From contig DATHRD010000015.1 in the NCBI GenBank assembly GCA_035482045.1, positions 14,597 to 78,596 on the forward strand: a stretch of 64,000 nucleotides of DNA, written 5' to 3'. The stretch's first letter is position 1; each line of letters begins with the position of its first letter. The position numbers and the translations under genes are program-made. Of this stretch, positions 4,412 to 58,493 are shown piece by piece. The stretch is from Thermoanaerobaculia bacterium. Its GTDB lineage: Bacteria; Acidobacteriota; Thermoanaerobaculia; Gp7-AA8. The notes beneath the pieces were generated by a model that did no database searches, was not told where the DNA came from, and saw only the letters and a list, made by a program, of their open reading frames with translations.

Positions 4412-4515
4412 GAACGAACCGAGACGAATGTTGAATGTTGAACGTTGAGTGTTAAATGTTGAATGAAGGTCAGCCACTCAACATTCACCACTGAACATTC
4501 AACATTCAACATTCG
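4405..4515. repeat. imperfect long inverted repeat built from tandem AATGTTG heptamers, AT-rich relative to the rest of the window
   Basis: acgaatgttgaatgttgaacgttgagtgttaaatgttgaatg ... cactcaacattcaccactgaacattcaacattcaacattcgt. Overlaps the 3-prime end of allantoinase and the 5-prime region of the allantoicase fusion gene. Confidence 0.8.
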
Positions 4516-5878
4516 TTCTCCGAACCCACTCCCCAATCGCATTGCCAAGATGCCGCCCATCCTCCCACACCTTGTGGCCACGGACATACGTCGCTCGGAC
4601 GACGCCGGTGAGCGTCTCGCCGGCATACGGCGTGACCTTGTGCCGATGTTGAACGAGCTCCTCTCGAACGACGAAATGCGCATCCGGATCGAAGACGACG
4701 ATGTCGGCGTCGAAGCCGGCGGCCAGCTTTCCTTTGCGGTCGCCGAGTCCTGCCAGCGTTGCCGGGCCGGTCGTCATCAGATGGACAATCTGCTCGAACG
4801 CAATGCCGCGCTTCTTCGCCTCGGTCCAGACAATCGGCAGGCCGAACTGCAGCGAGGCGATTCCGCCCCAGGCCCGCGCGATGTCGACTGCGTCCATCCG
4901 TTTCAGCTCCGGTGTACACGGGGAGTGATCGCTGACGACGGCGGTGAAGAGTCCCTCGCGGAGGCCGCGCCACAGCTCCTCGCGGTTGGCGTGACCGCGG
5001 ATCGGCGGGGCGCACTTGAACTCCGTCGCTCCGTCCGGCACCTGCTCGGCGTCGAAGTAGAGATAATGCGGCGTGGTCTCGGCAGTCAGCGGCCCGTGCG
5101 CGTCGCGGGCGCGGCGAAGCGCATCGAGCCCGTTCGCCGAGGAGAGGTGGACGATGTGGGCATGCGTCCCAGTCTTCCGCGCCAGCGCGTAGACGAGTGC
5201 GATCGCTTCATCCTCGGCTTCGGCGGGACGTGTGGCGAGGTAGCTCGCATACGAACGATCGTGGCCCGCCGGCGCGTGGATGTGCTCCGGCAATTCCGCG
5301 TGGACCAGCAGAGGCGCGCCGGTGTCCCGCAACGCGTTCAATGCCTCTTCCAGTCCGCGAGCATCGAGATGGCCAAACTCCGGCACTCCCGAGTCGACGA
5401 GAAAGCATTTGAAGCCGCACGCTCCGGCTTCGAGCATGGCCCGAAGCTGTCCCGAGTTTCCCGGCACCGCGCCGCCCCACAACGCCACGTCGACGCGACA
5501 CTTCCCATCGAGAGCGCGCACCTTCGTCTCCAGCGCCGCAACGGATGTCGTCGGAGGGATCGAGTTCAAGGGCATATCGACGACCGTGGTCACGCCACCG
5601 GCCGCCGCCGCCCGTGTGGCCGTCTCGAACCCTTCCCATTCCGTCCGCCCCGGCTCGTTGACGTGTACGTGCGAGTCCACGATGCCGGGCATGAGGGTGA
5701 GACCGCCGTAGTCTTCGAACGGGGCTCCCGCGGGGACGTCGTCGAATTCGCTGACGCGCTCGATCACTTGCCCGTTGACGTGAATCGTCGACGGCCGGAT
5801 ACCATGCGGCGTGACGACGCTACGGCTGCGGAGGATCACGTTTCGGATGATAGCGGAGGCAATGTATGTCTCGAACAC
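4499..5878 (-). CDS. allB: allantoinase
   Basis: GIVDSHVHVNEPGRTEWEGFETATRAAAAGGVTTVVDMPLNSIPPTT and WGGAVPGN motifs of cyclic-amidohydrolase allantoinase. Confidence 0.85.
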   Translation of the reverse strand: MFETYIASAIIRNVILRSRSVVTPHGIRPSTIHVNGQVIERVSEFDDVPAGAPFEDYGGLTLMPGIVDSHVHVNEPGRTEWEGFETATRAAAAGGVTTVVDMPLNSIPPTTSVAALETKVRALDGKCRVDVALWGGAVPGNSGQLRAMLEAGACGFKCFLVDSGVPEFGHLDARGLEEALNALRDTGAPLLVHAELPEHIHAPAGHDRSYASYLATRPAEAEDEAIALVYALARKTGTHAHIVHLSSANGLDALRRARDAHGPLTAETTPHYLYFDAEQVPDGATEFKCAPPIRGHANREELWRGLREGLFTAVVSDHSPCTPELKRMDAVDIARAWGGIASLQFGLPIVWTEAKKRGIAFEQIVHLMTTGPATLAGLGDRKGKLAAGFDADIVVFDPDAHFVVREELVQHRHKVTPYAGETLTGVVRATYVRGHKVWEDGRHLGNAIGEWVRRTNVEC

Positions 5879-5912: not shown

Positions 5913-6154
5913 TGTCATCCTGAGCCTGCCGGAGCCGCTGAGCGAGCGCAGCGCGAGTGCGGCGGAGGACGGCGAAGGATCTCCAGATGCGCTGCTTGGG
6001 GCAGAAGCACAGATGGGGTTTTGTCGTTGATCTTCCTCACAAAAACCACAGTTTCGCTACTGCCCCAGGCGCTGCCACTGGAGATCCTTCGCCGTCCTCC
6101 GCCGCTCTTCGCTCGCTACGCTCGCTCAGCGGCTGCGGCAGTCTCAGGATGACA
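5913..6154. mobile_element. MITE-like non-autonomous element, copy 1: about 74-bp near-perfect terminal inverted repeats with TGTCATCCTGAG termini
   Basis: Left arm tgtcatcctgagcctgccggagccgctgagcgagcgcagcgcgagtgcggcggaggacggcgaaggatctccag. Right arm ctggagatccttcgccgtcctccgccgctcttcgctcgctacgctcgctcagcggctgcggcagtctcaggatgaca. Central region of about 90 bp. A partial direct copy of the terminus (tgtcatcc) lies 12 bp upstream. Confidence 0.6.
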
Positions 6155-6194: not shown

Positions 6195-8540
6195 TCACGG
6201 CTGCGGTGCCGCCACTTCCCTCGCATCGCTTCCCCGTGCCGCCCGCCGGTACGCCGTCATCCGCGTCAAAATCTCTTCCCCCGTTGCCGGCGCGTTCAGT
6301 TTCGGGATCTCACCACCGCTGAGGTACGACAGCGCGTTCTTCACAGCCATCCAGACCGAGATGGCCAAGACGAGCGGGGGCTCGCCGGTCGCTTTGCTGG
6401 AGCGGATGTTGAGCGCGTTCTCCGCGTCGATCCAGTCGACATTGAAAACAGGCGGGACATCCTGGATGTTCGGGATCTTGTACGTCGTCGGCGAGTGCGA
6501 GAGGAGGTTGCCCTTGGCGTCGTAGCGCAACTCTTCGTTCGTGAGCCAGCCCATGCCCTGAATGAATGCACCGGTGATCTGGCCGCGGTCGATGCCGGGG
6601 TTGATCGGCTTGCCGATGTCCATCAGCAGGTCGGAGCGACGCACCTGCATCATGCCGGTGAAGCGATCGATCTCGACCTCGGAGATCGCCGTGCCCTGGG
6701 TGAAGTAGAGGAACGGCGTGCCGCGGCCCTTGTCCGCATCCCAGTCCAACCCCTGCGTCGCATAGAAACCGCGTTCGCCGAGGGAAACGCGCTCGATGTG
6801 ACACATCTTCACGAGAGCCGCAAAGGTGAGGCGCGGCTCCGGCACCCGGCGATCGAAGACGTCGCCGTCCTCGAAGACCACGTCATCGACGGATGGTGCC
6901 ACGGAGCCGGCGCGGCCGAAGTGCTCCGCGGCGACGGCCGCCATGCGTGATCGAATCTTCCGGCAGGCGTCGGCGGCGGCGCTGCCGTTGAGGTCCGCGC
7001 CGCTGGAGGCCGCCGTGGCCGAGGTGTTGTTGTTCTTCTCCGTCGACGTCGTCATCAGAAGGACGCGCTCGGCATCAATCCCCAGCTCATCGGCCACGAT
7101 CTGACGGATCTTCGTGTTGACGCCTTGACCCATCTCTGTCGCGCCGGTCGAGACCTGCACGGAGCCGTCGAGGTAGACGTTTACGAGGGCGTTGGCCTGG
7201 TTGAGGAACTTGGTGTTGAACGAGATGCCGAACTTCACCGCGGTACAGGCGATGCCGCGAAGATGGGTGCGCGAGGCCGCGTTGAAGCTGGCCACCTCGG
7301 CGGCACGCTTCGCGTAGTGGCCGCGTTTCGCGATCTCGTCGAAAAGATGAGGCAGGTGATTGTTGCGGACGACTTGACCGTAGGGCGTGATGTTGCGGTC
7401 GTCGATGCCGTAGCAGTTGCGGCGGCGGACTTCCAGCGGATCCATCTTCAGAATGACCGCGATCTCTTCCAGGATGTTCTCGATCGTGGCAATTCCCTGC
7501 GGTCCGCCGAAGCCGCGGAAGGCGGTGTTCGGCGGGTAATTGGTGCGACAAACCGTGCCGCGAATCAAGACGTCGGGCAGGTAATAGGCGTTGTCGGCGT
7601 GCGTCATGGCGCGCCCCAGGACCGCCGTCGAGAGGTCGGCGAAGGCGCCGCCGTCCGAGTAGAAATCGATGCGTGCGCCGGTGATCACGCCGTCGTCGTC
7701 GAACGCGACTCTGTAGTCGTTCTGGAACGGATGTCGCCCGCCGGTGACGCACATGTCGTCGTCTTTCGTGTAGGCGATGCGCGCCGGGCGCTTGAGCTTG
7801 TGTGCCACGAGTGCCGCAATCGCGGCAGGGTGCGTGGCCTGACACTCTTTCCCGCCAAAGCCGCCGCCCATCCTCTTGGTGACCACCGTTACCTTGTTGA
7901 TCGGCAGCCCGAGCAGATGAGCGATGACGTCCTGAACCTCGGAAGGGTTCTGCGTCGATGAGTGGACCGTGAGCTGATCGAATTCACCAGGCACGGCGAT
8001 CGCTGCCTGCGACTCAAGGTAGAAGTGATCCTGGCCGCCGCTGATGAACGTCCCCTCGAGAATGTGAGCGGCGGAAGCGAAGGCCGCCTCGACGTCGCCG
8101 CGCTGGATGGTCATCGTCCTGCCGATGAACAGGCAGCGCCGCTTCGCTTCGTCGATCGTGAACACCGGCTCCAGTTCTTCGATATCGACCCCGATGGTCG
8201 CCTTGGCCGCGCGGATGGCCGCGCGCGACTCGGCGGCGATGACGACGATCGGGTGCCCGATAAACGACGCCACGTCTTCGGCCAGGAGCAGTTCGTCCTG
8301 AATGATCGGCCCGAATAGGTTGTGGTGAAGATCGCGATAGGTGAAGAGTCCTGCGACGCCTGGCACCCTCCGCGCCGCATCGAGCTCGATCGAGCGGATC
8401 CGTCCATGGGCGACCGGCGACCAGACGAAGTCGACGATCAGCTCCCCGCGCAGCGGCGCCATGTCGTCGACGTACACCGACTCGCCGCTCACATGGCCGA
8501 CCGCCGAATCATGAGGGATGTTCTTTCCGACCGAGGACAT
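6195..8540 (-). CDS. xdhB: xanthine dehydrogenase molybdopterin-binding large subunit
   Basis: 781 aa. Ald_Xan_dh-like sequence throughout (e.g. FGGKE, molybdopterin-binding regions). Confidence 0.85.
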   Translation of the reverse strand: MSSVGKNIPHDSAVGHVSGESVYVDDMAPLRGELIVDFVWSPVAHGRIRSIELDAARRVPGVAGLFTYRDLHHNLFGPIIQDELLLAEDVASFIGHPIVVIAAESRAAIRAAKATIGVDIEELEPVFTIDEAKRRCLFIGRTMTIQRGDVEAAFASAAHILEGTFISGGQDHFYLESQAAIAVPGEFDQLTVHSSTQNPSEVQDVIAHLLGLPINKVTVVTKRMGGGFGGKECQATHPAAIAALVAHKLKRPARIAYTKDDDMCVTGGRHPFQNDYRVAFDDDGVITGARIDFYSDGGAFADLSTAVLGRAMTHADNAYYLPDVLIRGTVCRTNYPPNTAFRGFGGPQGIATIENILEEIAVILKMDPLEVRRRNCYGIDDRNITPYGQVVRNNHLPHLFDEIAKRGHYAKRAAEVASFNAASRTHLRGIACTAVKFGISFNTKFLNQANALVNVYLDGSVQVSTGATEMGQGVNTKIRQIVADELGIDAERVLLMTTSTEKNNNTSATAASSGADLNGSAAADACRKIRSRMAAVAAEHFGRAGSVAPSVDDVVFEDGDVFDRRVPEPRLTFAALVKMCHIERVSLGERGFYATQGLDWDADKGRGTPFLYFTQGTAISEVEIDRFTGMMQVRRSDLLMDIGKPINPGIDRGQITGAFIQGMGWLTNEELRYDAKGNLLSHSPTTYKIPNIQDVPPVFNVDWIDAENALNIRSSKATGEPPLVLAISVWMAVKNALSYLSGGEIPKLNAPATGEEILTRMTAYRRAARGSDAREVAAPQP

Positions 8541-8610: not shown

Positions 8611-10596
8611 ATGCGACATGTCGCCGTTGCGGCTGTGTTTCTGCTCGTCTGTCCGATCGCTATCGCCCAGCACCTCCACGCCACTACCGCCCCCGGGCGA
8701 GTCTCGCCGTGCGACAAAAAATTCGCGGAGGCTGTCAGCCAGCCGCAATTTGCGAACCGCGAGTGGGTAGTCACCAGCAACGGGACGGCGCAGAAGTACT
8801 TCGACCAAGGATTGACGCAGTATTACGGATTCAACTTTGAAGAGGCGCTGCGCAACTTCCGCGGAGCGGCGGCAGCCGATAGCACACTGGCCATGGCATA
8901 TTGGGGCATCGCGCTCGCGGCGGGCCCGAACATCAACCTCGGCATGGACGATCCGTGTCGCGCTGTGGCGCTGAAGGCGATCCTGGCTGCGGAGGAGCGG
9001 GCGAAGACGGGCAAAGACGACAGAGCCAAGCTGGCGCGCGCTCTGATCCACGCACTCTCGTTACGCTACAACGATCCGGGCGATCCGGTGTCGGAGGCAG
9101 TCGCCTACAGCGTCGCCATGGGCAAGATTTGGGACCAATACAAGGACCAACGCTCTGGCATCGGCGTCAGCGTTAATGTCGGCGCACTCTACGCCGAGAG
9201 TATGCTTGATCTACGCCCGTGGGGCGTGTACGACCATTGCAAGAGCGCTGCGCTCGAGACTCTCCAAATTGAGAGCGTCCTGGAGAACTGCATAGACAAT
9301 TCTCGCGACGCTCTCGGCGCGAATCACTTCTGGATACACACGGTCGAAGGGGGGCCCAAACCGGACACAGACCGGGATTTTTGGAGCGCGGAATTGCTGA
9401 CGCGGCTGGTTCCCGCGTCGGGGCATCTGGTGCACATGCCGTCGCACATTTTTCTGCTGAACGGCCAATACCTAAATTCTTTGAATAGCAACGTGCAGGC
9501 CGTGAACGCCGATTTAAGCGAGTACGAGGAATCCTGCCGCGGCTCGTACACGGTGTATAGCGCTAATGACAAATGCCCGCAGCTCTATTACGGCCACTAC
9601 CAAAGCCACAACTACTTCTTCGGCACCGTCTCCGCCACATTTCTCGGGCGAAGCGAGCAAGCGGTGAAACTAGCGTGCGACACGAGCGCGCACGCGCAGC
9701 GCTTCTCGGCCAATGAGCCGGAGTTGCAGCGATACATGACGGCGCCGCTCCTGACTCTGGTGATGAACCGCAACTGGTGCGCAGTCCTCAAGGAGCCGGA
9801 GCCACCCGAGGAGTGCTACATGTGCCCGTTTGTGCCGGATAAGTACCCGCTGAACGGTTGCCACATCCTTAGTTCCGTGCGGCATTGGGCGCGCGGGATG
9901 GCGTACATCGCCGGCGCCAACGACGACTCCAGCACATGCAAAGTCCAAGCACCCGATATCGCCAGGTCGCGCGGGGAGTATGACGCGATGGCGAAGGAGA
10001 TGACCAAGATCGTTCCTCCCACGCCGATCGGATGGGGTAACAACAGCGCCGCGGCGGTGCTGGCCATCGCTCAGTCGATGCTGAGGGCGCGCATCAGTTG
10101 GGCGAAAGGTCAGTGCGCGAAGTTCGGTGAGTGCAAAGCGGGCGGTTTGTGTGAGAAGGGTGGTCAGTGCGAGGCAGCCCTGGACGAGGCCATTTCGCAT
10201 CTGAAGCTCGCGGTCACGCACGAGGACGCGCTGGGATACGACGAGCCTCCACAGTGGTTCGCCCCCACCCGCGAGGCTCTCGGCGGCGCCTACCTGCAGC
10301 TAGGAGAGCTCCATCTTGCGGAGCAAGTATTCGATGAAGAGCTTGAGCGCCACCCGGCGAGCGGCCGCGCTCTCTATGGCAAGATGCGTGCACAAGGGAA
10401 AACCGACGATCTCGCTTTCTGCACTGCGTGGGCGAACGCTGATTACACGATGACCGACGAGGATCTTTGGCCGGCTGCGATACTCGATGCCAAGAGCAAT
10501 GTCGTAACGACATGCGGAAAAGAGATAAAGGCTCTGTCTAAAAAGAGTTGCTCAAATCCTTCGCTTCCGATCTCCTGCCCCACAAAGATGGAGTGA
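8611..10596 (+). CDS. secreted Cys-rich hypothetical protein with C-terminal TPR-like region
   Basis: Signal peptide MRHVAVAAVFLLVCPIAIAQ. Many Cys residues. C-terminal TPR-like segment. No family recognised. Inserted between xdhB and xdhA on the opposite strand. Confidence 0.6.
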   Translation: MRHVAVAAVFLLVCPIAIAQHLHATTAPGRVSPCDKKFAEAVSQPQFANREWVVTSNGTAQKYFDQGLTQYYGFNFEEALRNFRGAAAADSTLAMAYWGIALAAGPNINLGMDDPCRAVALKAILAAEERAKTGKDDRAKLARALIHALSLRYNDPGDPVSEAVAYSVAMGKIWDQYKDQRSGIGVSVNVGALYAESMLDLRPWGVYDHCKSAALETLQIESVLENCIDNSRDALGANHFWIHTVEGGPKPDTDRDFWSAELLTRLVPASGHLVHMPSHIFLLNGQYLNSLNSNVQAVNADLSEYEESCRGSYTVYSANDKCPQLYYGHYQSHNYFFGTVSATFLGRSEQAVKLACDTSAHAQRFSANEPELQRYMTAPLLTLVMNRNWCAVLKEPEPPEECYMCPFVPDKYPLNGCHILSSVRHWARGMAYIAGANDDSSTCKVQAPDIARSRGEYDAMAKEMTKIVPPTPIGWGNNSAAAVLAIAQSMLRARISWAKGQCAKFGECKAGGLCEKGGQCEAALDEAISHLKLAVTHEDALGYDEPPQWFAPTREALGGAYLQLGELHLAEQVFDEELERHPASGRALYGKMRAQGKTDDLAFCTAWANADYTMTDEDLWPAAILDAKSNVVTTCGKEIKALSKKSCSNPSLPISCPTKME

Positions 10597-10694: not shown

Positions 10695-12164
10695 CTACAC
10701 CCGCGCGAAGCGACGTTCCGCCGCCTCTTCGAACACCTCGTACCAGAACTTCGCCATGATGTTCTCTGCGAGTTGCAGCCTGTAGTCGGCGGAGCCCCGC
10801 ACGTCGCTGATCGGCTTGATCTCGTCGCGGGCGATGCGGCCGGCGTGCTCGAAGGTATCAAGGGTGGCCGTCTTGCCGGCCAGGAAGGCTTCCGTGTGCG
10901 GGAGGCGGATGACGGTAGGGGCGACGCCGCCGTAGGCGATGATGGCGTGGTCGATCCGATCGCCGCTGATTGCCAATCGAATGGCGGCGGTGAAGGCGGA
11001 GATGTCGAGATCCTTGCGTCGCGAGACCTTGTAGAGCTTGAGCGTGTCGCGGACGATGGGGATGCGAACGCTGGTGATGATCTCGTCGGGATGGAGATCG
11101 AACTTCCGGTATCCGAGGTAGAAGCGGTCGATCGGAACGGTGCGAGTGCCGCCGTTCAGCGCGAGGGTGGCGCCGGCGACGAAGAGATAAGGCAACGTGT
11201 CGGCGATTGGAGAGCCGTTGGCGATGTTGCCGACCAGCGTTCCGGCGTTCTTGATCTGAGGTGAGCCGAACACGGCCAGGATGCCCGCCAGCTCGGGGAT
11301 GCGATCGGCGATGAACGTCTCGAAGTCGGCGAGCGTCGCATTCGCGCCGGCGACGATCGCGCCGTCTTCTTCGCGCAACTCGTTGAGCGATGCGATCTTC
11401 GACAGTGACAGCATCGCCGGCGCGGCGAGGTTCCGCTTGTTGACCCAGACGCCGACGTCGGTCCCCCCCTGCACGATCGTGCATCCGGGATGGCCGCGTT
11501 TGAAGGCGATTGCCTCGTCGAGCGTGGCCAGCGCGCAGAAGGAGCCGACCTCCACGGAATCGCTTGCATCCGGAAGATCGGGATAGCGGTCGCGCATCTT
11601 GCTGATCGGCGCGCCGTCGATCGCCAGCGCGGCCTTGATGATCGGCTCGTAGCCGGTGCAGCGGCAGAGGTTTCCGGTCAGCCCGTCACGTACCTGTTTT
11701 TCATCGACCCGGTCACAGCGCTCGAACATTCCGGCCATGGCCATGACGAAGCCGGGCGTGCAGTAGCCGCACTGCGCGCCGTGGCAACGAACCATGGCCT
11801 CCTGAACAGGATGGAGAACGTTTTTACGCGGAGACGCGGAGACGCGGAGGGAGTCCTCTTTTCTCCGCGTCTCCGCGCCTCCGCGTGAAACGGTTTTCGT
11901 TTCGCTCAATCCTTCCACCGTGACGATCGATGATCCATCGAGCTGCGCGAGCGAAAGGATGCAGGCGTTGACCGGACGATAGTCGGCATCGGCCGTGCGC
12001 CGGGTCAATACCGTGCAGGCGCCGCAATCCCCTTCCTCGCAGACGATCTTCGTCCCAGTGGCAGCGACATCCTGTCGAAGATAGTTCGCGAGGGTCTCGA
12101 AGGCGACATCGCCGGCGATGCGATGTTCACGGCCGTTGATGTGGATGAGGATGTGGTCGCGCAC
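10695..12164 (-). CDS. xdhA: xanthine dehydrogenase small subunit (2Fe-2S and FAD-binding)
   Basis: EEGDCGACTV and CGYCTPGFVM ferredoxin motifs followed by an FAD-binding domain. Contains an unusual in-frame palindromic segment (separate feature). Confidence 0.85.
   Translation of the reverse strand: MRDHILIHINGREHRIAGDVAFETLANYLRQDVAATGTKIVCEEGDCGACTVLTRRTADADYRPVNACILSLAQLDGSSIVTVEGLSETKTVSRGGAETRRKEDSLRVSASPRKNVLHPVQEAMVRCHGAQCGYCTPGFVMAMAGMFERCDRVDEKQVRDGLTGNLCRCTGYEPIIKAALAIDGAPISKMRDRYPDLPDASDSVEVGSFCALATLDEAIAFKRGHPGCTIVQGGTDVGVWVNKRNLAAPAMLSLSKIASLNELREEDGAIVAGANATLADFETFIADRIPELAGILAVFGSPQIKNAGTLVGNIANGSPIADTLPYLFVAGATLALNGGTRTVPIDRFYLGYRKFDLHPDEIITSVRIPIVRDTLKLYKVSRRKDLDISAFTAAIRLAISGDRIDHAIIAYGGVAPTVIRLPHTEAFLAGKTATLDTFEHAGRIARDEIKPISDVRGSADYRLQLAENIMAKFWYEVFEEAAERRFARV
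11826..11888. repeat. near-perfect 24-bp-stem hairpin embedded in frame in the xdhA interdomain linker
   Basis: cgcggagacgcggagacgcggaggga gtcctctttt ctccgcgtctccgcgcctccgcg. Encodes the low-complexity segment VSRGGAETRRKEDSLRVSASPRKN. Confidence 0.8.
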
Positions 12165-12166
12165 GT

Positions 12167-13498
12167 CTACAGCCGCACGATCCCGTTATACGTCTCCGGC
12201 CGCCTGTCCCGATAGAACTGCCACGTATTGCGGACTTCGCGGATCTTGTCCATATCCAGATCCGCGGTCACGAGCGCGTCCGCATCGCGAGGGCCCACGG
12301 CCAGCATCTGGCCACGCGGATCGCAGAAGTAGCTCTGGCCGTAGAACTCGCCGATGTTCCATGGCGCCTCGTAACCAACGCGATTGATGGCGCCGACGAA
12401 GTAGCCGTTGGCCACCGCGTGCGCCGGCTGCTCGAGCTTCCAGAGGTACTCCGAGAGACCGGCTACCGTCGCGGAAGGGTTCATCACGATTTCCGCTCCG
12501 GCCAGGCCCAACTCCCGGGCGCCCTCGGGGAAGTGGCGGTCGTAGCAGATGTAGACGCCGACCTTGGCGTAGGCCGTATCGAACACCGGGTACCCGAGGT
12601 TGCCGGGACGGAAGTAGAACTTCTCCCAGAAACCGGGCGCGACGTGCGGAATGTGGTTCTTACGGTACTTGCCGAGGTACGTGCCGTCGGCGTCGATCAC
12701 GGCGGCGGTGTTGTAGTAGACGCCGGTCGACTCTTCCTCATACAGCGGCACGATGATGACCATGCTGTATTTCTTGGCGTACTCCTGCATCAGCTTCGTG
12801 GTCGGACCGTCCGGGATCCTCTCCACGGAGTCGTACCAACGCGTGCTCTGCTCGGCGCAGAAGTAAGGGCCGGTGAAGATCTCCTGCATGCAGAGGACCT
12901 GAACGCCCTCGGCGCCGGCCTGGTCGACATACTTGAGCGTGCGCTCAGTCTGGGCCTCGCGGATCTTCTCGAGCGATTCGCTCGTGTCACAGGCCAGGGA
13001 CGTCTGAATCAAACCACCTTTAACGATTCGGGACATGTGTTTTCTCTCCGATTGGGGCTCGCGGATTATACCGGCACGGCCGGTAGCGTTGGTCGCCCGA
13101 GGCTCCGCCACAACGTGCGCGTAATCAACGTTTTCGCGCGGAGCTTCGTCGGCGACGATGATCGTCGGTTGTGGCGGCTCCGGGGGCGGAGGTGGGGGTG
13201 CTGGCTGCGGCACCGGCTCCGGTTCAATGATCGGCAACGGTTCCGGATCGGCGTCCGGCAACGGCTCGGGATCTTCGGGAGGAGGTTCTGCGTAGGTCGG
13301 ACTCTCAGTCCGACCGGGCGGTGGTACGACCTCGGACGCGCGGTCGGATTGGAGGTCGGACTGGAGAGTCCGACCTCCGTTCGTCCGACCTACGTTGGCC
13401 TCGTCTGCCTTCTCGCGTTCCGCGTTCTTCCGCCGCCATGACCCGCCGGCGATGATGATGACGACTGCAACAAGGATGAGGATGGTGATGTAGGTCAT
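12167..13498 (-). CDS. beta-ureidopropionase-like CN-hydrolase (N-carbamoyl amidohydrolase), possibly with an N-terminal membrane anchor and Pro-rich linker
   Basis: Catalytic domain motifs: YRKNHIP, PVFDT, ICYDRHFP, GAEIVMNPSAT. Two candidate starts. ATG 13498 overlaps the NCS1 stop (ATGA) and gives a TM helix plus Pro-rich region. ATG 13036 is preceded by TATAAT and GGAGAG. Confidence 0.75.
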   Translation of the reverse strand: MTYITILILVAVVIIIAGGSWRRKNAEREKADEANVGRTNGGRTLQSDLQSDRASEVVPPPGRTESPTYAEPPPEDPEPLPDADPEPLPIIEPEPVPQPAPPPPPPEPPQPTIIVADEAPRENVDYAHVVAEPRATNATGRAGIIREPQSERKHMSRIVKGGLIQTSLACDTSESLEKIREAQTERTLKYVDQAGAEGVQVLCMQEIFTGPYFCAEQSTRWYDSVERIPDGPTTKLMQEYAKKYSMVIIVPLYEEESTGVYYNTAAVIDADGTYLGKYRKNHIPHVAPGFWEKFYFRPGNLGYPVFDTAYAKVGVYICYDRHFPEGARELGLAGAEIVMNPSATVAGLSEYLWKLEQPAHAVANGYFVGAINRVGYEAPWNIGEFYGQSYFCDPRGQMLAVGPRDADALVTADLDMDKIREVRNTWQFYRDRRPETYNGIVRL

Positions 13499-18879: not shown

Positions 18880-19076
18880 CGGTTGCGGGGTCGCGCGGCA
18901 GCGTGATTGCGCGGTCTCGCGGATTCGGTTGCTGAGTCGCTGGGTTACTGAGTTGCTGAGTCTACGGAAGCTGCCCAGCAACCCAGCAACCCCAGCAACC
19001 CAGCAACCCCAGCAATCCAGCAACTCAGCAACTCAGCAACCCAGCACCCCGAGACCGCGCAGCCGCGAGACCGCGT
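18880..19076. repeat. long imperfect inverted repeat made of GTTGCTGAG / CCCAGCAAC short tandem units, flanked by GCGGTCTCGCGG and CGCGAGACCGCG
   Basis: Left arm gcgcggtctcgcggattcggttgctgagtcgctgggttactgagttgctgagtc. Right arm ccagcaacccagcaaccccagcaacccagcaaccccagcaatccagcaactcagcaactcagcaacccagcaccccgagaccgcgcagccgcgagaccgcg. Confidence 0.8.
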
Positions 19077-22589: not shown

Positions 22590-22734
22590 GTGGTTGCTGA
22601 GTTGCAAGGTTGCTGGGTCTCTCGGCAGCGCGGTCTCGCAGTAGCGCGGCGGCCACGAGCAGAGACCGCGAGACTTCGAAACCGCGAGACTTCGAGACCC
22701 AGCAACCCAGCAACCCGCATCACAGCAACCCGCA
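22590..22734. repeat. inverted repeat element combining GTTGCTG / CAGCAAC units with GCGGTCTCG / CGAGACCGC cores
   Basis: gttgctgagttgcaaggttgctgggtctc...gcggtctcg ... cgagaccgcgagacttcgaaaccgcgagacttcgagacccagcaacccagcaacccgcatcacagcaacccgcatcacag. Confidence 0.8.
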
Positions 22735-24589: not shown

Positions 24590-24665
24590 AATGGGGGTGG
24601 GGAGTGGCGGGTGGGGAGTCGGAGAACCTATCATTCGGAATGACAGATATCCCCACCCTCCACTC
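24590..24665. repeat. G-rich / C-rich palindrome of the GGGGTGGGGAGTGG family in a divergent intergenic region
   Basis: atgggggtggggagtggcgggtggggagtcgg ... tccccaccctccactccc, followed by TATAAT at about 24668-24673. Confidence 0.75.
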
Positions 24666-24679
24666 CCTATAATCCCCGC

Positions 24680-37099: not shown

Positions 37100-37240
37100 T
37101 TACCTGATGTTGGGGGGTGGGGAGTGGGGGTGGGGAGTGGGAGAGGGAGTCGCGGTGGGAAGCTACTGCTCTGAAATCCAACTCCCAACTGCCACTCCCA
37201 CCCCCCACTCCCCACTCCCCACCCCCCACCCCGCGATATC
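37100..37240. repeat. G-rich / C-rich long palindrome of the GGGGTGGGGAGTGG family between mglA-like and eda-like genes
   Basis: ggggggtggggagtgggggtggggagtgggagagggag ... ctcccaactgccactcccaccccccactccccactccccaccccccacccc. Confidence 0.8.
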
Positions 37241-50236: not shown

Positions 50237-50249
50237 TCGGCATGCTCCC

Positions 50250-50406
50250 TGTCATCCTGGGGCGGCGGCGCCCCGGAGGGGCAAAGCGCGCCGAAGGACC
50301 CCCAACGCGCTTGCATCGACGGATAACCACCACCCGCCCTGGTTACCAGGCTGGGGGTCGTTCGTCGTCCTGCACCCCTCCGGGGTTTCGGCGACTCAGG
50401 ATGACA
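50250..50406. mobile_element. MITE-like element, copy 2, with the same TGTCATCCTG...CAGGATGACA termini as copy 1
   Basis: tgtcatcctggggcggcggcgccccggaggggcaaagcgcg ... ccggggtttcggcgactcaggatgaca. Fills the convergent gap between the histidine kinase and the Spy-like gene. Confidence 0.6.
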
Positions 50407-50409
50407 GCA

Positions 50410-52242: not shown

Positions 52243-52325
52243 GAGGGTTCTCCTTGTTGCCGAAGAGGTTACGACGGTATGAGGGGAACGTTGAACATAT
52301 AATCCCGGCAACTCGATCCGCTCCT

Positions 52326-53627
52326 ATGCGCCCTCTTTTTGCAGCCATGGCTCTTATCGCCGCGGGTCTCAGCCCCGCTCTCGCGCAGCCTCTTGTCTGT
52401 CCCCCTGTCGCCTCCGTCGCCGGCCGTGCGTGCGACACGTTTCACTATCACGTGCAGATGTTCAAGCCGGATACCCGCGAGTTCGTCGAGCTTTACGGGG
52501 TCAACCAGTTCGCCTCGATGGCGGCTTGTGAACGTGCCCGCGATGTGCAGTTCAAACGCAACATGGCGGTTGTCGAGTTCTTTCGTGCGCAGAGGAGAGA
52601 CTGGTGGCAGGCCGACAAATTCGGGCAGTGCCATTGCGACATGACCGTCGAACGCGCCAGCCCGAACGCGTTGACGGACGCCGCGCGGGTCCAGCAGATC
52701 CACGACGCGGAAGAGGTTCGGCAACGCGTCCGGGAGCGCCTGCTCGATGCCAGAGTCCCGGCAGACGCAGAGCTGATCCGCGATCTGGCCCCGCCGGTCA
52801 GCACCACACCGCTCATCGGCGGTCCCAAGCTGGTGTCGATGCCGCCTCCGGTTGCGGCCACGACAGTCTCGGGCTCGCCCGACGATCTTCGGATCACGAA
52901 GGCGGTCGATACGACCCCAGCATCGACGACATCGCTCGATCTGCCTCTCGTCGATGTCCCGTTGCCGGGCATCGCGCCGGCCATGGAAACCGCTCCCGCC
53001 ACTACGCCGACGCAAGTGCCGCCGCCCTCCGTGCCGCAGACGTCTGCCCCGGCTCCAGTCAGCAACGCCCCGGCGCAAGCGGTTCCAGCACCGCAGCCCG
53101 CGCAACCTTCGCCAGCCCCCGTCTCCACCGAGCCGTTGGCCATCGTCGACGATCCCGATCTCCCGGCGCCTGAAGATGTCGCAGACGCCTTCGTCAGCTA
53201 TGAGTCGCAGCGTATCCAGAACGTGTTGAAGGTCAGCGGCAGCATCGGCGACGAATCGATCAAGGCTCAGGTGCTCGATGCCTGTACGCAGCGGATCCAA
53301 CTCCTTTCGAACCTTCGCTCGATCATCGTCGGGTCCGGTGCGAAGAGTCGTCTGGTCGCGGCCACGAATGTCGCGAGAAAAGAGAGCGACCGCCTGGCCG
53401 TGGTGGCAAAACTGTTCGGGAGTGACGTGCCGCCGCACTGGGCGCCCAAGGATGCGTCCGATGTGATCTTCGACCCGGGTGTCACGGACCCGGAGCGAGT
53501 GCTCCGCGACAGCTCGTCGTCCGATCAACAGAAACGCCACGCTCTCTACGTTCTGCTGGCGACGACATCGCCGACCGAGCAGCAGCAGATGTGGCTAAAC
53601 TCCGTGATCGAGGCGCTGCTGAAATGA
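52326..53627 (+). CDS. secreted hypothetical protein with Pro/Thr/Ala-rich linker
   Basis: Signal peptide MRPLFAAMALIAAGLSPALAQ. Low-complexity PAPQPAQPSPAP segment. No family recognised. Confidence 0.5.
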   Translation: MRPLFAAMALIAAGLSPALAQPLVCPPVASVAGRACDTFHYHVQMFKPDTREFVELYGVNQFASMAACERARDVQFKRNMAVVEFFRAQRRDWWQADKFGQCHCDMTVERASPNALTDAARVQQIHDAEEVRQRVRERLLDARVPADAELIRDLAPPVSTTPLIGGPKLVSMPPPVAATTVSGSPDDLRITKAVDTTPASTTSLDLPLVDVPLPGIAPAMETAPATTPTQVPPPSVPQTSAPAPVSNAPAQAVPAPQPAQPSPAPVSTEPLAIVDDPDLPAPEDVADAFVSYESQRIQNVLKVSGSIGDESIKAQVLDACTQRIQLLSNLRSIIVGSGAKSRLVAATNVARKESDRLAVVAKLFGSDVPPHWAPKDASDVIFDPGVTDPERVLRDSSSSDQQKRHALYVLLATTSPTEQQQMWLNSVIEALLK

Positions 53628-55423
53628 AACCAGAAACCAGAAACCAAGAACCAGAAACCAGAAACCAGAAACCAGCAAGCGTGCGGCGATCACGATTCTC
53701 ATTTCCGCCTTCTGGTTTCTGGTTTCTGGTTTCTGGTTTCTGCCTTCTGGTTTCTGCCTCCTGCCTTTTCGCGCAGGCGCCGCCAGCTTCGCCCGTTCCG
53801 GCGCAGCCCGCAGGCCCTCCTTCTCAGCCCGCCGCGTCCGCGGCCATGCCTCCGAGCGAAGAGTTCGTGAAGGCGGTTTACTTCGGCGAAAAGTTCGCCG
53901 AGATGAAGGATTACGCAAACGCCTATCAGCAGTTCGCGAAGGCGGACGCGCTGCAGCCCGATGTGCCAGGTGTGCTGTACAACATGGGGGTTCTCCTCGC
54001 CCGCGCCGGCCGCTTCTCGGAGGCACAGGCCAAGGTCGATCGCTACAACCAGCTCTTTCCGGCCGGTGCCGAGAAACCGCTCGTCGCCAAACTGCAACTC
54101 GATCTGGAGTTCGAGCGGGAGCTTCAAAAGAAACGGCAGACGGATGAGGAGTACACCGCCATCTTCACGAGGGGCCGGTTCCTTTACGGCAAGGGTGATC
54201 TTTCAGCCGCGCTCAAGCTGTTCCAGGACGCCGAGCAACAGCGCCCTACCGATCCGGCCGCCGTTTTCAACCAGGGCGTTGTCTATGAAAAGCTCGGGGA
54301 TCTGAACAGAGCGGCGGAGCGCTTTCACCGCTACGAAGAACTGGAGCCCGACGCGAACGCGAAGTCGTCGGCGGATCAGCGCCTGCTCGGTATCGAGAGC
54401 GAGATGTCGGACATGAAGACGAAGATTGTCTGCCCCTTCTGCGGATGGCGGCTGCCGATCGGGTCGATCTGGTGCCCGCACTGCTGGCACGGTCCGTATC
54501 TCACGTCACAATCGCACTGGAATTCGAGGCCGTGTACCGATGGAGCAACGGCGACGCGCGCGACGTATTACGCTGACGGTCGTTTCGCGAAAAACGATTC
54601 ACTGCCTTGTCTCTTCAACGGCATGATGCTCGACGCGCTCCGCTATACGCCTGACCGCCAGCGGCGAGTCCAGGAGACGCGCAAGGCCGAGGGGTGGACG
54701 TACAGCGGAGACCTCATCCAGGGGTGGCATGACCGGCAGGGCAATGAGATTCGTTACGTCCAGGGGGCCGACTACCTCGAAAAGATCGTTTCCCCCAGCG
54801 GCGGAGACCTGCTGCTGTTCAACGCTCACAAAGCGCCTGATGCCGGTATCTGGCTGCTCGATCGGGAGGATGTCGTCATCGACGGTCAGAAGTACACGTC
54901 GCGCTACACCTTCGACGCCCAGAATCGCGTCGCCGAGCAGCAGGTCGTTTATCAGAACGCCGCCGGCTGCAATGACGTCATCACGATGACGGCACTCGCC
55001 ACGTACACGAACGATCTTCTGGCGGGGTTGCAGATCCGCGGAGGTTATACGGGCACTGTCGTTCAGGGCTCGCCGCGCGTCGATTGGGAGGCCAACGTCG
55101 CCTTCTCCTATGACGTCAACGCGCGAGAGACGAAGGAAGAGCTGGCCGTGAGCTCGATGACGAAGACCTACACGGAAAAGCCCTACGGCATGATGCGTCA
55201 GGAAGTGGCCGCGCTCTATCCGGAAATGCGCGTCCGCAAACCGATCGAGAGGATCCTCTATCTCGGCGATCGCTGCGGTGTCTCCGGCACGACAGTCCTC
55301 GGCAATCCCGTCGACCTCCGGCCGTTCTATGCCCTCACTCCGAATCTGGCCGTGGCCATCGCCAGCGGCGTCACCCGTGCGACGGTGAGTTTCACGTATC
55401 CGGACTCGTATAGGGTTCGATAG
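53624..55423 (+). CDS. secreted TPR-containing protein; signal peptide encoded by a (GAAACCA)n / (TGGTTTC)n inverted repeat
   Basis: MKPETRNQEPETRNQKP...FWFLVSGFCLLVSASCLFAQA then TPR-like units. ATGA overlap with the upstream stop. Confidence 0.55.
   Translation: MKPETRNQEPETRNQKPASVRRSRFSFPPSGFWFLVSGFCLLVSASCLFAQAPPASPVPAQPAGPPSQPAASAAMPPSEEFVKAVYFGEKFAEMKDYANAYQQFAKADALQPDVPGVLYNMGVLLARAGRFSEAQAKVDRYNQLFPAGAEKPLVAKLQLDLEFERELQKKRQTDEEYTAIFTRGRFLYGKGDLSAALKLFQDAEQQRPTDPAAVFNQGVVYEKLGDLNRAAERFHRYEELEPDANAKSSADQRLLGIESEMSDMKTKIVCPFCGWRLPIGSIWCPHCWHGPYLTSQSHWNSRPCTDGATATRATYYADGRFAKNDSLPCLFNGMMLDALRYTPDRQRRVQETRKAEGWTYSGDLIQGWHDRQGNEIRYVQGADYLEKIVSPSGGDLLLFNAHKAPDAGIWLLDREDVVIDGQKYTSRYTFDAQNRVAEQQVVYQNAAGCNDVITMTALATYTNDLLAGLQIRGGYTGTVVQGSPRVDWEANVAFSYDVNARETKEELAVSSMTKTYTEKPYGMMRQEVAALYPEMRVRKPIERILYLGDRCGVSGTTVLGNPVDLRPFYALTPNLAVAIASGVTRATVSFTYPDSYRVR
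53625..53765. repeat. inverted repeat composed of tandem GAAACCA heptamers (left arm) and TGGTTTC heptamers (right arm)
   Basis: gaaaccagaaaccagaaaccaagaaccagaaaccagaaaccagaaacc ... ttctggtttctggtttctggtttctgccttctggtttctg. Confidence 0.85.
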
Positions 55424-58414: not shown

Positions 58415-58493
58415 TTGCGAAGTGGCGCGGTTGCGGGGTCTCGCGGCGGCCGGCTACCGCGCGACCTCGGAACCGCGAGACTGCGAGACCGCG
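58415..58493. repeat. GCGGTCTCGCGG palindromic element abutting the bshA start codon
   Basis: gcggttgcggggtctcgcgg ... ccgcgagactgcgagaccgcg ATG. Confidence 0.75.

Follow-up and report, generated by a model that had tools for sequence, protein, structure and literature searches.

How does a near-perfect hairpin come to lie in the middle of an intact enzyme gene, and what keeps it there? The question is raised by positions 11826-11888 of a 64,000-nt stretch of DNA from a Thermoanaerobaculia bacterium (contig DATHRD010000015.1; the whole of this stretch is called the window below), where an earlier note, made from the sequence alone, had described a 24-bp-stem hairpin inserted in frame in the gene xdhA. 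The reading that we consider probable is that the 63-nt hairpin and its 9-nt tail represent one copy of a family of non-coding palindromes, dispersed and resembling the repetitive extragenic palindromes (REPs), and that this copy is tolerated in a permissive connector of the XdhA protein.

The hairpin and the protein that carries it

Sequence and predicted fold agree on a stem of 24 bp – 23 Watson-Crick pairs and one G-U – closed by a 13-nt loop, each arm being made of three tandem octamers of the unit GCGGAGNC. Folded as sense RNA, the hairpin forms 24 uninterrupted pairs at -59.9 kcal/mol, compared with a mean of -29.3 (standard deviation 3.4) for shuffled sequence (z = -9.07), with 0 of 200 shuffles folding as well; as plus-strand DNA it reaches -37.8 kcal/mol (z = -7.2). 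The hairpin of the earlier note is thus confirmed, and its parts, with the gene around them, are these:

10695-12164, minus strand: xdhA-type gene, with Pfam matches to Fer2 ahead of the insert and to Fer2_2, FAD_binding_5 and CO_deh_flav_C after it
11814-11898: imperfect palindrome at its full extent, with 36-nt arms that are 86% complementary
11826-11849, plus strand: first arm, ACGCGGAGACGCGGAGACGCGGAG
11850-11862, plus strand: loop, GGAGTCCTCTTTT
11863-11886, plus strand: second arm, CTCCGCGTCTCCGCGCCTCCGCGT, followed by GA
11826-11888, minus strand: 63-nt hairpin core, codons 93-113, peptide SRGGAETRRKEDSLRVSASPR
11889-11906, minus strand: 18-nt prefix, AGCGAAACGAAAACCGTT (S87-V92)
11863-11888, minus strand: 5' arm in the mRNA, a TCAC border and three octamers (TC-AC GCGGAGGC GCGGAGAC GCGGAG), as parsed from the alleles
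11850-11862, minus strand: 13-nt loop, AAAAGAGGACTCC on the coding strand, diverging at the synonymous rate across alleles
11826-11849, minus strand: 3' arm in the mRNA, CTCCGC GTCTCCGC GTCTCCGC GT
11817-11825, minus strand: tail, AAAAACGTT (K114-N115-V116), a degenerate copy of the family outer terminus GTGAAACCGTT

At the position of the tail, 8 of the 11 parsed hairpin-bearing alleles read GAAACCGT(T/C) or GAAACGGTT. The prefix pairs imperfectly with the tail, a small adjacent hairpin being predicted there, and represents either native loop codons (RET..) or the 5' outer arm of the element.

The only long open reading frame (ORF) over the site, at 10695-12164, encodes a 489-aa protein of XdhA type and remains open throughout the hairpin, so that the insertion is indeed in frame, with the correction of detail that the gene lies on the minus strand. 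The protein shows the domain order expected of XdhA in Pfam – Fer2 at residues 7-68 (20.4 bits, slightly below the cut-off of 21), Fer2_2 at 114-179 (E = 1.3e-26), FAD_binding_5 at 211-369 (4.6e-42) and CO_deh_flav_C at 377-477 (3.7e-29) – as well as the eight Fe-S cysteine ligands (C42, C47, C50, C68, C132, C135, C167 and C169), which are invariant in an alignment of 61 sequences including the window protein, and it has a molybdopterin partner, XdhB, encoded nearby. The hairpin-derived peptide, SRGGAETRRKEDSLRVSASPRKN, occupies residues 93-115. It had been placed between the 2Fe-2S and FAD domains; it lies instead in the connector that joins the two [2Fe-2S] domains, Fer2 and Fer2_2, and does not adjoin the FAD domain.

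A comparison with the best solved relative, XdhA of R. capsulatus (1JRO/2W3S; E = 1e-85), gives the insert its size: residues 7-87 of the query align to 5-82 of that protein and 116-481 to 87-454, leaving four residues (83-86) opposite 28 in the query. In an AlphaFold2 model (mean predicted local distance difference test score, pLDDT, 81.7; predicted template modelling score, pTM, 0.83), residues 90-114 fall below a pLDDT of 50 and are coil without secondary structure, and the ~25 extra Arg/Ser/Glu/Ala-rich residues are accordingly predicted to form a disordered loop. Among the hairpin-bearing alleles the gene is 93% identical at codon positions 1 and 2 and 67% identical at position 3, a pattern that shows xdhA to have remained under purifying selection with the hairpin in it.

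The hairpin lies within an intact ORF and does not have the GC-rich stem and following U run of an intrinsic terminator; no terminator-like site was found in 11600-12100 on either strand, and a promoter and terminator scan at the hairpin gave no signal. Across the window Rfam returned no match at gathering score, the sub-threshold matches being only to microRNA precursors and amounting to generic hairpin matches.

The neighbourhood of xdhA is a cluster for purine catabolism that encodes allantoicase/OHCU decarboxylase, amidohydrolases, XdhB, a CN-hydrolase and a purine permease. The partner subunit is separated from xdhA by an ORF on the opposite strand:

6195-8540, minus strand: XdhB, with Pfam matches to Ald_Xan_dh_C, MoCoBD_1 and MoCoBD_2

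The stretch between the two genes holds a 661-aa ORF at 8611-10596 (plus strand) with no Pfam match, and in the relatives fetched xdhB never directly follows xdhA. In one relative (L201; L numbers designate the loci compared, P numbers the proteins) an IS110-family transposase gene lies just downstream of xdhA.

The site in relatives and the dispersed family

The closest XdhA genes among species-representative genomes all come from uncultured soil Thermoanaerobaculia (Acidobacteriota), the best at 87% protein identity, and most of these relatives have no hairpin. More than 50 orthologues are free of it and, like XdhA of R. capsulatus, have just 1-6 codons there: in L002-L080, 3-22 nt stand where the window has 90 nt, typically encoding Leu-Arg-Glu/Asp and 2-3 further codons. 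L001, which is OY970284.1, is the sole carrier among the genome orthologues with both flanks anchored, the others having 3-18 nt apart from a remnant in L016; protein and contig look-ups added L193, L201, L203 (truncated where its contig ends) and L204-L210. This makes 12 close Thermoanaerobaculia alleles with the hairpin or the greater part of it, 11 of them full (counting the contig-cut L203) and the twelfth, L210, lacking the 3' arm. In all 11 measurable hairpin alleles, full or partial, the length is a multiple of three. The alignment of orthologues for which the earlier note had called places the insert in a Thermoanaerobaculia subclade; distant orthologues are without it, and none was seen to carry a non-palindromic insert. 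The alleles with some part of the element fall into a derived series of classes:

Prefix (18 nt), core (63 nt) and tail (9 nt): the window, L201, L204 and L208, with L210 as a version whose 3' arm is deleted
Core and tail, no prefix: L001, L193, L205-L207 and L209
One arm, CTCCGCGT CTCCGCGC CTCCGCGT GAGACCGTT, 24 nt of octamers, in frame: L202
Prefix alone, no hairpin: L004

The one-armed alleles carry the family terminus GTGA(A/G)ACCGTT, and the protein motif of the one-armed allele, LRVSAPPRETV, is present in many protein clusters. A further remnant, 25 nt with two octamers (CTCCGCG CCTCCGCG TGAAACCGTT), stands at 3255-3278 of L016 (JAFAOU010000217.1); it is 8 nt shorter than the in-frame one-armed allele, so that the reading frame runs into a TGA and tblastn matches the gene in two segments, and this xdhA is either a pseudogene through octamer slippage or an assembly error. 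The hairpin is also an assembly breakpoint: the contig of L203 (1-75) ends within it, yielding a truncated 366-aa gene call, P0073, that starts with MVQCHG. The idea that such 366-aa proteins represent frameshifted xdhA was rejected, the contig of P0073 ending inside the hairpin and P0078 and P0083 sharing its start residue.

The arms recur far outside xdhA. An exact-pattern scan (GCGGAGACGCGGAG-N6-30-CTCCGCGTCTCCGC) finds the family at at least 120 loci in soil metagenome contigs, in the form ..AAAAGGTTTCAC-(GCGGAGNC)2-4-variable loop-(GNCTCCGC)2-4-GTGAAACCTTTT.. Among the matches listed, the flanks are unrelated between loci, which rules out that the metagenome copies are all fragments of xdhA; in 73-82 of 120 a TCAC stands before the first unit and a GTGA after the last; the arms have 2-4 units, with one copy of 4 and 11; the loops read vary by locus, a few orthologous pairs excepted; and an outer consensus, AAAAGGTTTCAC...GTGAAACCTTTT, is present, with complementarity at chance ~10 nt beyond the arms. 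The family also occupies a second site in genomes related to that of the window. In L008-L012 (~2929-2971), of which L011 is OY970380.1, a TCAC-(GCGGAGNC)n copy lies in the spacer between CN_hydrolase and xdhA, ~30 nt ahead of the start codon of xdhA; these genomes therefore contain the family, although the xdhA gene of this clade has no internal copy. L201 and L210 have the internal copy, and their spacer is 8 nt long and without a hairpin. The repeat family was not found in Rfam or in the searchable literature, where the arm sequence gave a single, irrelevant match.

At L092, L115, L142, L172, L173 and L175, several of them on contigs labelled Ga0209579, the GCGGAG hairpin is nested within a further pair of inverted repeats, GCCACCCAG(C/G)TGGGTGGC in type, ~30-40 nt off on each side; this arrangement hints that the palindromic element of that organism is composite and larger.

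ORFs spanning a hairpin among the 120 listed loci were screened and then checked against Pfam, and the in-frame copies in other genes that the earlier note had thought worth seeking turned up in two. In a biotin carboxylase gene (L083, 394-447) Biotin_carb_C is matched in two stretches, the element lying just upstream of the best one. The insert there is composite, ~43 residues long, with the GCGGAG hairpin between two smaller hairpins, one per side, that belong to a different type of repeat (TTCCCGCGAAAGCGGGAA / CCCCGCTAACGCGGGG); L097 and L111 have comparable hairpins on their flanks. The second copy, in a MurC ligase gene (L099, 3452-3507), adds 20 residues between ...GIGFEVI and KLQVPGRHN. 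This MurC belongs to an alphaproteobacterial, Rhizomicrobium-like clade, with relatives at 71-75% identity labelled Rhizomicrobium sp., Stellaceae and Alphaproteobacteria bacterium. Its insert (..SRGDAE...SAPPRLRV..) is retained down to ~75% identity (P0123-P0149, P0155, P0158 and P0162-P0166), and the nearest insert-free relatives are only ~75% identical. At this site other MurC members have a different, longer low-complexity insert (..SSPPPCGEVEARSASGGGG...TSPQGGG..) of ~45 residues, possibly another repeat, which suggests a shared permissive site or a hot spot. On the evidence of these sequences, the family – or a convergent look-alike – extends beyond Acidobacteriota, with in-frame copies recurring. 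A protein-database search for further in-frame hosts, with a 47-aa composite of the hairpin-encoded peptide as query, gave 3 candidates and no useful match.

Origin of the insertion and conservation of its arms

If the hairpin is a tolerated family copy, a subclade of soil Thermoanaerobaculia would have fixed it, in frame, where a short connector on the protein surface links the ferredoxin-type [2Fe-2S] domain at the N terminus to the helical [2Fe-2S] domain. Translated into ~25 disordered residues, the copy would be tolerated by an enzyme that keeps all its Fe-S ligands; it would have survived because the connector accepts extra disordered residues and because its own length is divisible by three. 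Arrival may have been by mobilisation in trans as single-stranded hairpin DNA, in the manner of REPs and the REP-associated tyrosine transposases (RAYTs), or by template switching, and may have been a single old event followed by loss or recombination. Later, deletion of one arm and the loop would have left three in-frame octamers, and palindrome-type deletion and octamer slippage would have removed parts of arms and altered the number of units.

Against this reading stand the distribution of the hairpin among alleles, the conservation of its arms, and the lack of a target-site duplication and of further copies in the window. On a neighbour-joining tree of xdhA, built with the insert excluded, hairpin-bearing and hairpin-free alleles are intermixed, with bootstrap support of 98% for the mixed clade L012/L201, 82% for L001/L005 and 87% for L002/L007/L209; a single insertion therefore requires many losses or recombination. 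Over 120-nt flanks, hairpin-bearing alleles are no more alike (0.831) than others are (0.831 and 0.824). As to mobility, direct repeats at the borders of 119 copies are no more frequent than chance, giving no target-site duplication at the family level, and only one copy of this exact family lies within the 64-kb window. In 801 kb of loci, a sample too small to be informative, phmmer with an IS200 TnpA query found no IS200-like transposase, and all-against-all clustering of ORFs near the 120 copies found no hairpin-specific neighbour gene. RAYT genes are single-copy, and none was seen in this sequence. A 9-nt direct repeat at xdhA, AAAACCGTT / AAAAACGTT, was considered as a target-site duplication and down-weighted, AAACC(G)TT being the family outer arm at unrelated loci.

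The conservation of the arms is seen most clearly in the seven alleles with a 13-nt loop, for which mean pairwise identity and variable columns are:

5' arm: 0.938; 3 of 26 columns variable
3' arm: 0.893; 7 of 24 columns variable
Loop: 0.663; 9 of 13 columns variable
Tail: 0.73; 5 of 9 columns variable
Gene, codon position 1: 0.906; 95 of 455 variable
Gene, codon position 2: 0.937; 60 of 455 variable
Gene, codon position 3: 0.666; 303 of 456 variable

Over all ten alleles the arms are 92% identical; in the seven, only 2 of the 16 third-codon sites in the arms are variable, against 66% gene-wide (probability ~1.5e-5 by a binomial estimate with p = 0.66). A passenger at a fixed locus should decay neutrally, and the arms do not, whereas neutral decay fits the loop (0.66) and the tail (0.73). 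Because the variation in the arms has no codon-position pattern, the constraint is on nucleotides rather than on the peptide. No compensatory (double) changes were found in the arms across alleles, each of which has 0-4 mismatches left unrepaired; preservation is best in the window copy. The conservation of the arms has one of three causes: host-level selection, homogenisation, or copies younger than they appear.

The history of the site can be narrowed from other features. Hairpin-free alleles of a clade have mutually matching, outgroup-like loops (REEKS/REEKA), so that these loops are not deletion scars. The hairpin alleles have in common their position, frame, 3+3 units and tail, as well as the motif A[AG]AAGA[GC]G 5' in the loop, and their three arm haplotypes broadly follow the clades of the gene tree; a search for a recombination tract, by flank identity and by sliding windows, gave no clear mosaic. 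We lean to one old insertion with recombination or loss over repeated arrival at a preferred site, since divergence of the loop and tail matches that of synonymous sites. What the earlier note had pictured – an element in a permissive loop – holds as far as element and loop are concerned, in view of the copies at other loci, the hairpin-free orthologues and the predicted disorder; the one-armed alleles and the patchy tree add complications to a single landing.

Four other explanations bear on the same observations. Repeated or recent arrival, whether by independent hot-spot insertion or short-tract recombination, with copies younger than the genes, is a doubtful but serious candidate. It accounts for carriers scattered among hairpin-free alleles whose loops match within clades, and for a family copy placed differently in sisters, in the upstream spacer of L008-L012 and within the gene in L201 and L210. 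Every hairpin allele moreover has GGA TTG (TTA in L208) just upstream, where hairpin-free sisters vary, and the native GGN CTN CGC GAN is like the unit and terminus of the element and could guide a homology-dependent insertion. Yet all alleles agree in position, frame, unit number, tail and loop motif; their loop and tail divergence argues for old copies; the flanks have no hitch-hiking signal; and the arm haplotypes broadly track the gene tree. That selection maintains the hairpin at this site as a functional nucleic-acid structure, and that it is not a tolerated passenger, we regard as rather unlikely, with a translation pause between the Fe-S domains, mRNA stability or processing, or a site for a reader of the GCGGAG repeat at 8-nt spacing as candidate roles. 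Arms conserved at all codon positions (10 of 50 columns variable) beside a loop and synonymous sites that are only ~66% identical would fit such a structure, as would variable arm columns that are mainly the NN spacer of GCGGAGNN, as across the family, and a hairpin sitting exactly at a domain boundary; it is opposed by the lack of compensatory changes, with one persistent mismatch shared by most alleles, by the many close relatives without the hairpin or with one arm, by a count of mismatch types in which sense-strand G-U and A-C mismatches show no asymmetry, and by the absence of a terminator or promoter signal and of an Rfam family.

An origin in place, in which the native octamer (GG)C CTC CGC G slipped and was then inverted by template switching with no mobile element involved, is disfavoured and would come as a surprise. 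The Gly-Leu-Arg codons of L013 and L016 do spell the arm unit CCTCCGCG, alleles with two (L016) or three (L202) tandem units and no second arm exist, and unit number varies in the family up to the copy with arms of 4 and 11; but the same arms, TCAC/GTGA borders and AAACC(G)TT outer sequence stand at at least 120 loci with unrelated flanks, another phylum included, so that convergence on all three would be demanded, and the one-armed alleles themselves bear the family terminus. Hardly credible at all is an assembly or sequencing artefact. Contigs do break in the hairpin (L203, and P0073, whose truncation point P0078 and P0083 share) and the two-unit version of L016 does shift the frame, but the identical 489-aa protein exists in JGI metagenomes (P0001, xanthine dehydrogenase small subunit; two contigs, five member sequences), and the 12 hairpin alleles come from different samples and assemblers, with the frame kept in all 11 that can be measured.

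A copy of a dispersed family, tolerated in the connector, thus remains the probable reading, and the likeness of the native GGN-CTN-CGC-GAN to arm unit and terminus could on this reading, too, have favoured a homology-guided event. A bolder extension, which we hold only tentatively and think improbable, is that the arms, not the loop or peptide, are under purifying selection at a fixed coding locus, as parts of an undescribed hairpin system whose arms are recognised or maintained by some factor.

Related repeats and significance

The nearest parallel in behaviour is with the Rickettsia palindromic elements (RPEs): dispersed palindromes, in frame in unrelated housekeeping genes, translated, tolerated and retained across relatives (PMC10969869; PMC3733652). 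As in that system, the same repeat stands in frame in unrelated genes, namely xdhA (window, L001, L193 and L201-L210), biotin carboxylase (L083) and MurC (L099). The likeness claimed is one of behaviour. RPEs are ~100-150 bp long and AT-rich, belong to an obligate intracellular alphaproteobacterium and encode a conserved peptide per family, whereas the xdhA element is 60-85 nt long and GC-rich, with tandem-octamer arms and a hypervariable loop; its encoded peptide varies with loop and frame, and the hosts of the family are free-living soil Acidobacteriota and at least one alphaproteobacterial lineage.

With REPs and REPINs (REP doublets forming hairpins) the family shares short, dispersed, imperfect palindromes that are mostly extragenic, occasionally in frame, without target-site duplication and long-lived (PMC3733652; PMC3116915); dispersal over at least 120 loci, with a second site in related genomes, and the lack of target-site duplication were both found here. 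Intragenic GTAG- and CGTC-tagged REPs were catalogued by Di Nocera et al. 2013 (PMC3733652). The xdhA family has neither tag, its borders being the symmetric TCAC...GTGA, and its stems are 16-32 bp of tandem octamers, compared with 5-13 bp in REPs. [quoted passage not shown] They have terminal inverted repeats from a parent insertion sequence (IS) and target-site duplications; the xdhA element is one whole palindrome, with no duplication at the family level and no parent IS seen. A further comparison is with the intergenic heptamer arrays of Xanthomonas (GGGAATC) and Nostoc (GGGGA(T/C)T), sometimes inverted, whose 7-8-nt units vary in number by slippage and whose inverted arrays could form stem-loops (PMC4692102); these are mainly direct arrays, and in-frame intragenic hairpins are not among the features described in the parts of that source consulted (PMC4692102).

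The window itself holds ten further long hairpins (1060-1139, 4424-4516, 5956-6108, 18927-19049, 22601-22714, 24598-24669, 37106-37240, 50249-50407, 53626-53763 and 58426-58493). They are not simply terminators, because they lie in co-directional, convergent and divergent gaps alike. Most of those read, 5956-6108 and 50249-50407 excepted, are made of tandem 7-8-nt, locus-specific units (GCGGTNNC/CCGCGARA, GAATGTT, CAGCAAC[CT], GGGGAGT and GAAACCA), several of which recur in related genomes; the GAAACCA, GAATGTT, GGGGAGT and CAGCAAC hairpins resemble intergenic tandem heptamer arrays. The cyanobacterial short tandemly repeated repetitive sequences (STRRs) are intergenic tandem heptamer repeats comparable to the xdhA family. 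The earlier note had related the xdhA hairpin to the intergenic CGCGAGACCGCG hairpins (1060-1139, 22601-22714 and 58426-58493). They do share an architecture of GC-rich tandem octamers in inverted arrays, but kinship did not emerge, the unit being CCGCGAGA in one case and CGCGGAGA in the other, and hairpin 1060-1139, the sole CGCGAGACCGCG hairpin whose ends were read, has no TCAC/GTGA ends. Hairpin 22601-22714 looks like one hairpin inside another, the outer arms being of CAGCAAC type and the inner ones of CGCGAGAC type. Two others touch coding sequence: the right arm of the GAATGTT hairpin (4475-4516) covers the last ~five codons and stop of the amidohydrolase gene 4499-5878 (minus strand), and the GAAACCA hairpin starts (53625-53640) within the TGA stop of the gene 52254-53627 (plus strand).

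A second in-frame palindrome, a GTAG-tagged REP/REPIN-like doublet, lies at 13292-13393 (minus strand) in the CN_hydrolase gene 12167-13498 that adjoins xdhA. It reads GTAGGTCGGAC ... GTCCGACCTAC with inner GGTCGGACT/AGTCCGACC hairpins and encodes NVGRTNGGRTLQSDLQSDRASEVVPPPGRTESPTYAE in a variable Pro-rich N-terminal linker; its peptide, NVGRTLQSD.TPSRTESPTY.E, occurs twice in the L204 orthologue and is missing from six others, and GTAGGTCGGAC is present in 14 of the sequences compared.

In-frame REPs and RPEs are already documented (PMC3733652; PMC10969869), and the phenomenon has been best known from the RPEs of Rickettsia and a few REP families; with the xdhA hairpin, the insertion of palindromic repeats in frame is also seen in uncultured soil Acidobacteriota, and for a repeat family not found in Rfam or the searchable literature. 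Its locus offers a natural allele series – empty, full, one arm, truncated arm and frameshift – in which the entry and decay of an element within a gene can be followed, and it carries a practical warning that the hairpin breaks metagenome contigs and yields truncated gene calls. The conservation of the arms far above the neutral level, with a loop that is not so conserved, is a testable hint of host-level selection or of a correction process acting on the hairpins. If selection on the arms were true, the family would be one of at least two soil-bacterial phyla, spreading without target duplication and repeatedly adding disordered segments to essential enzymes.

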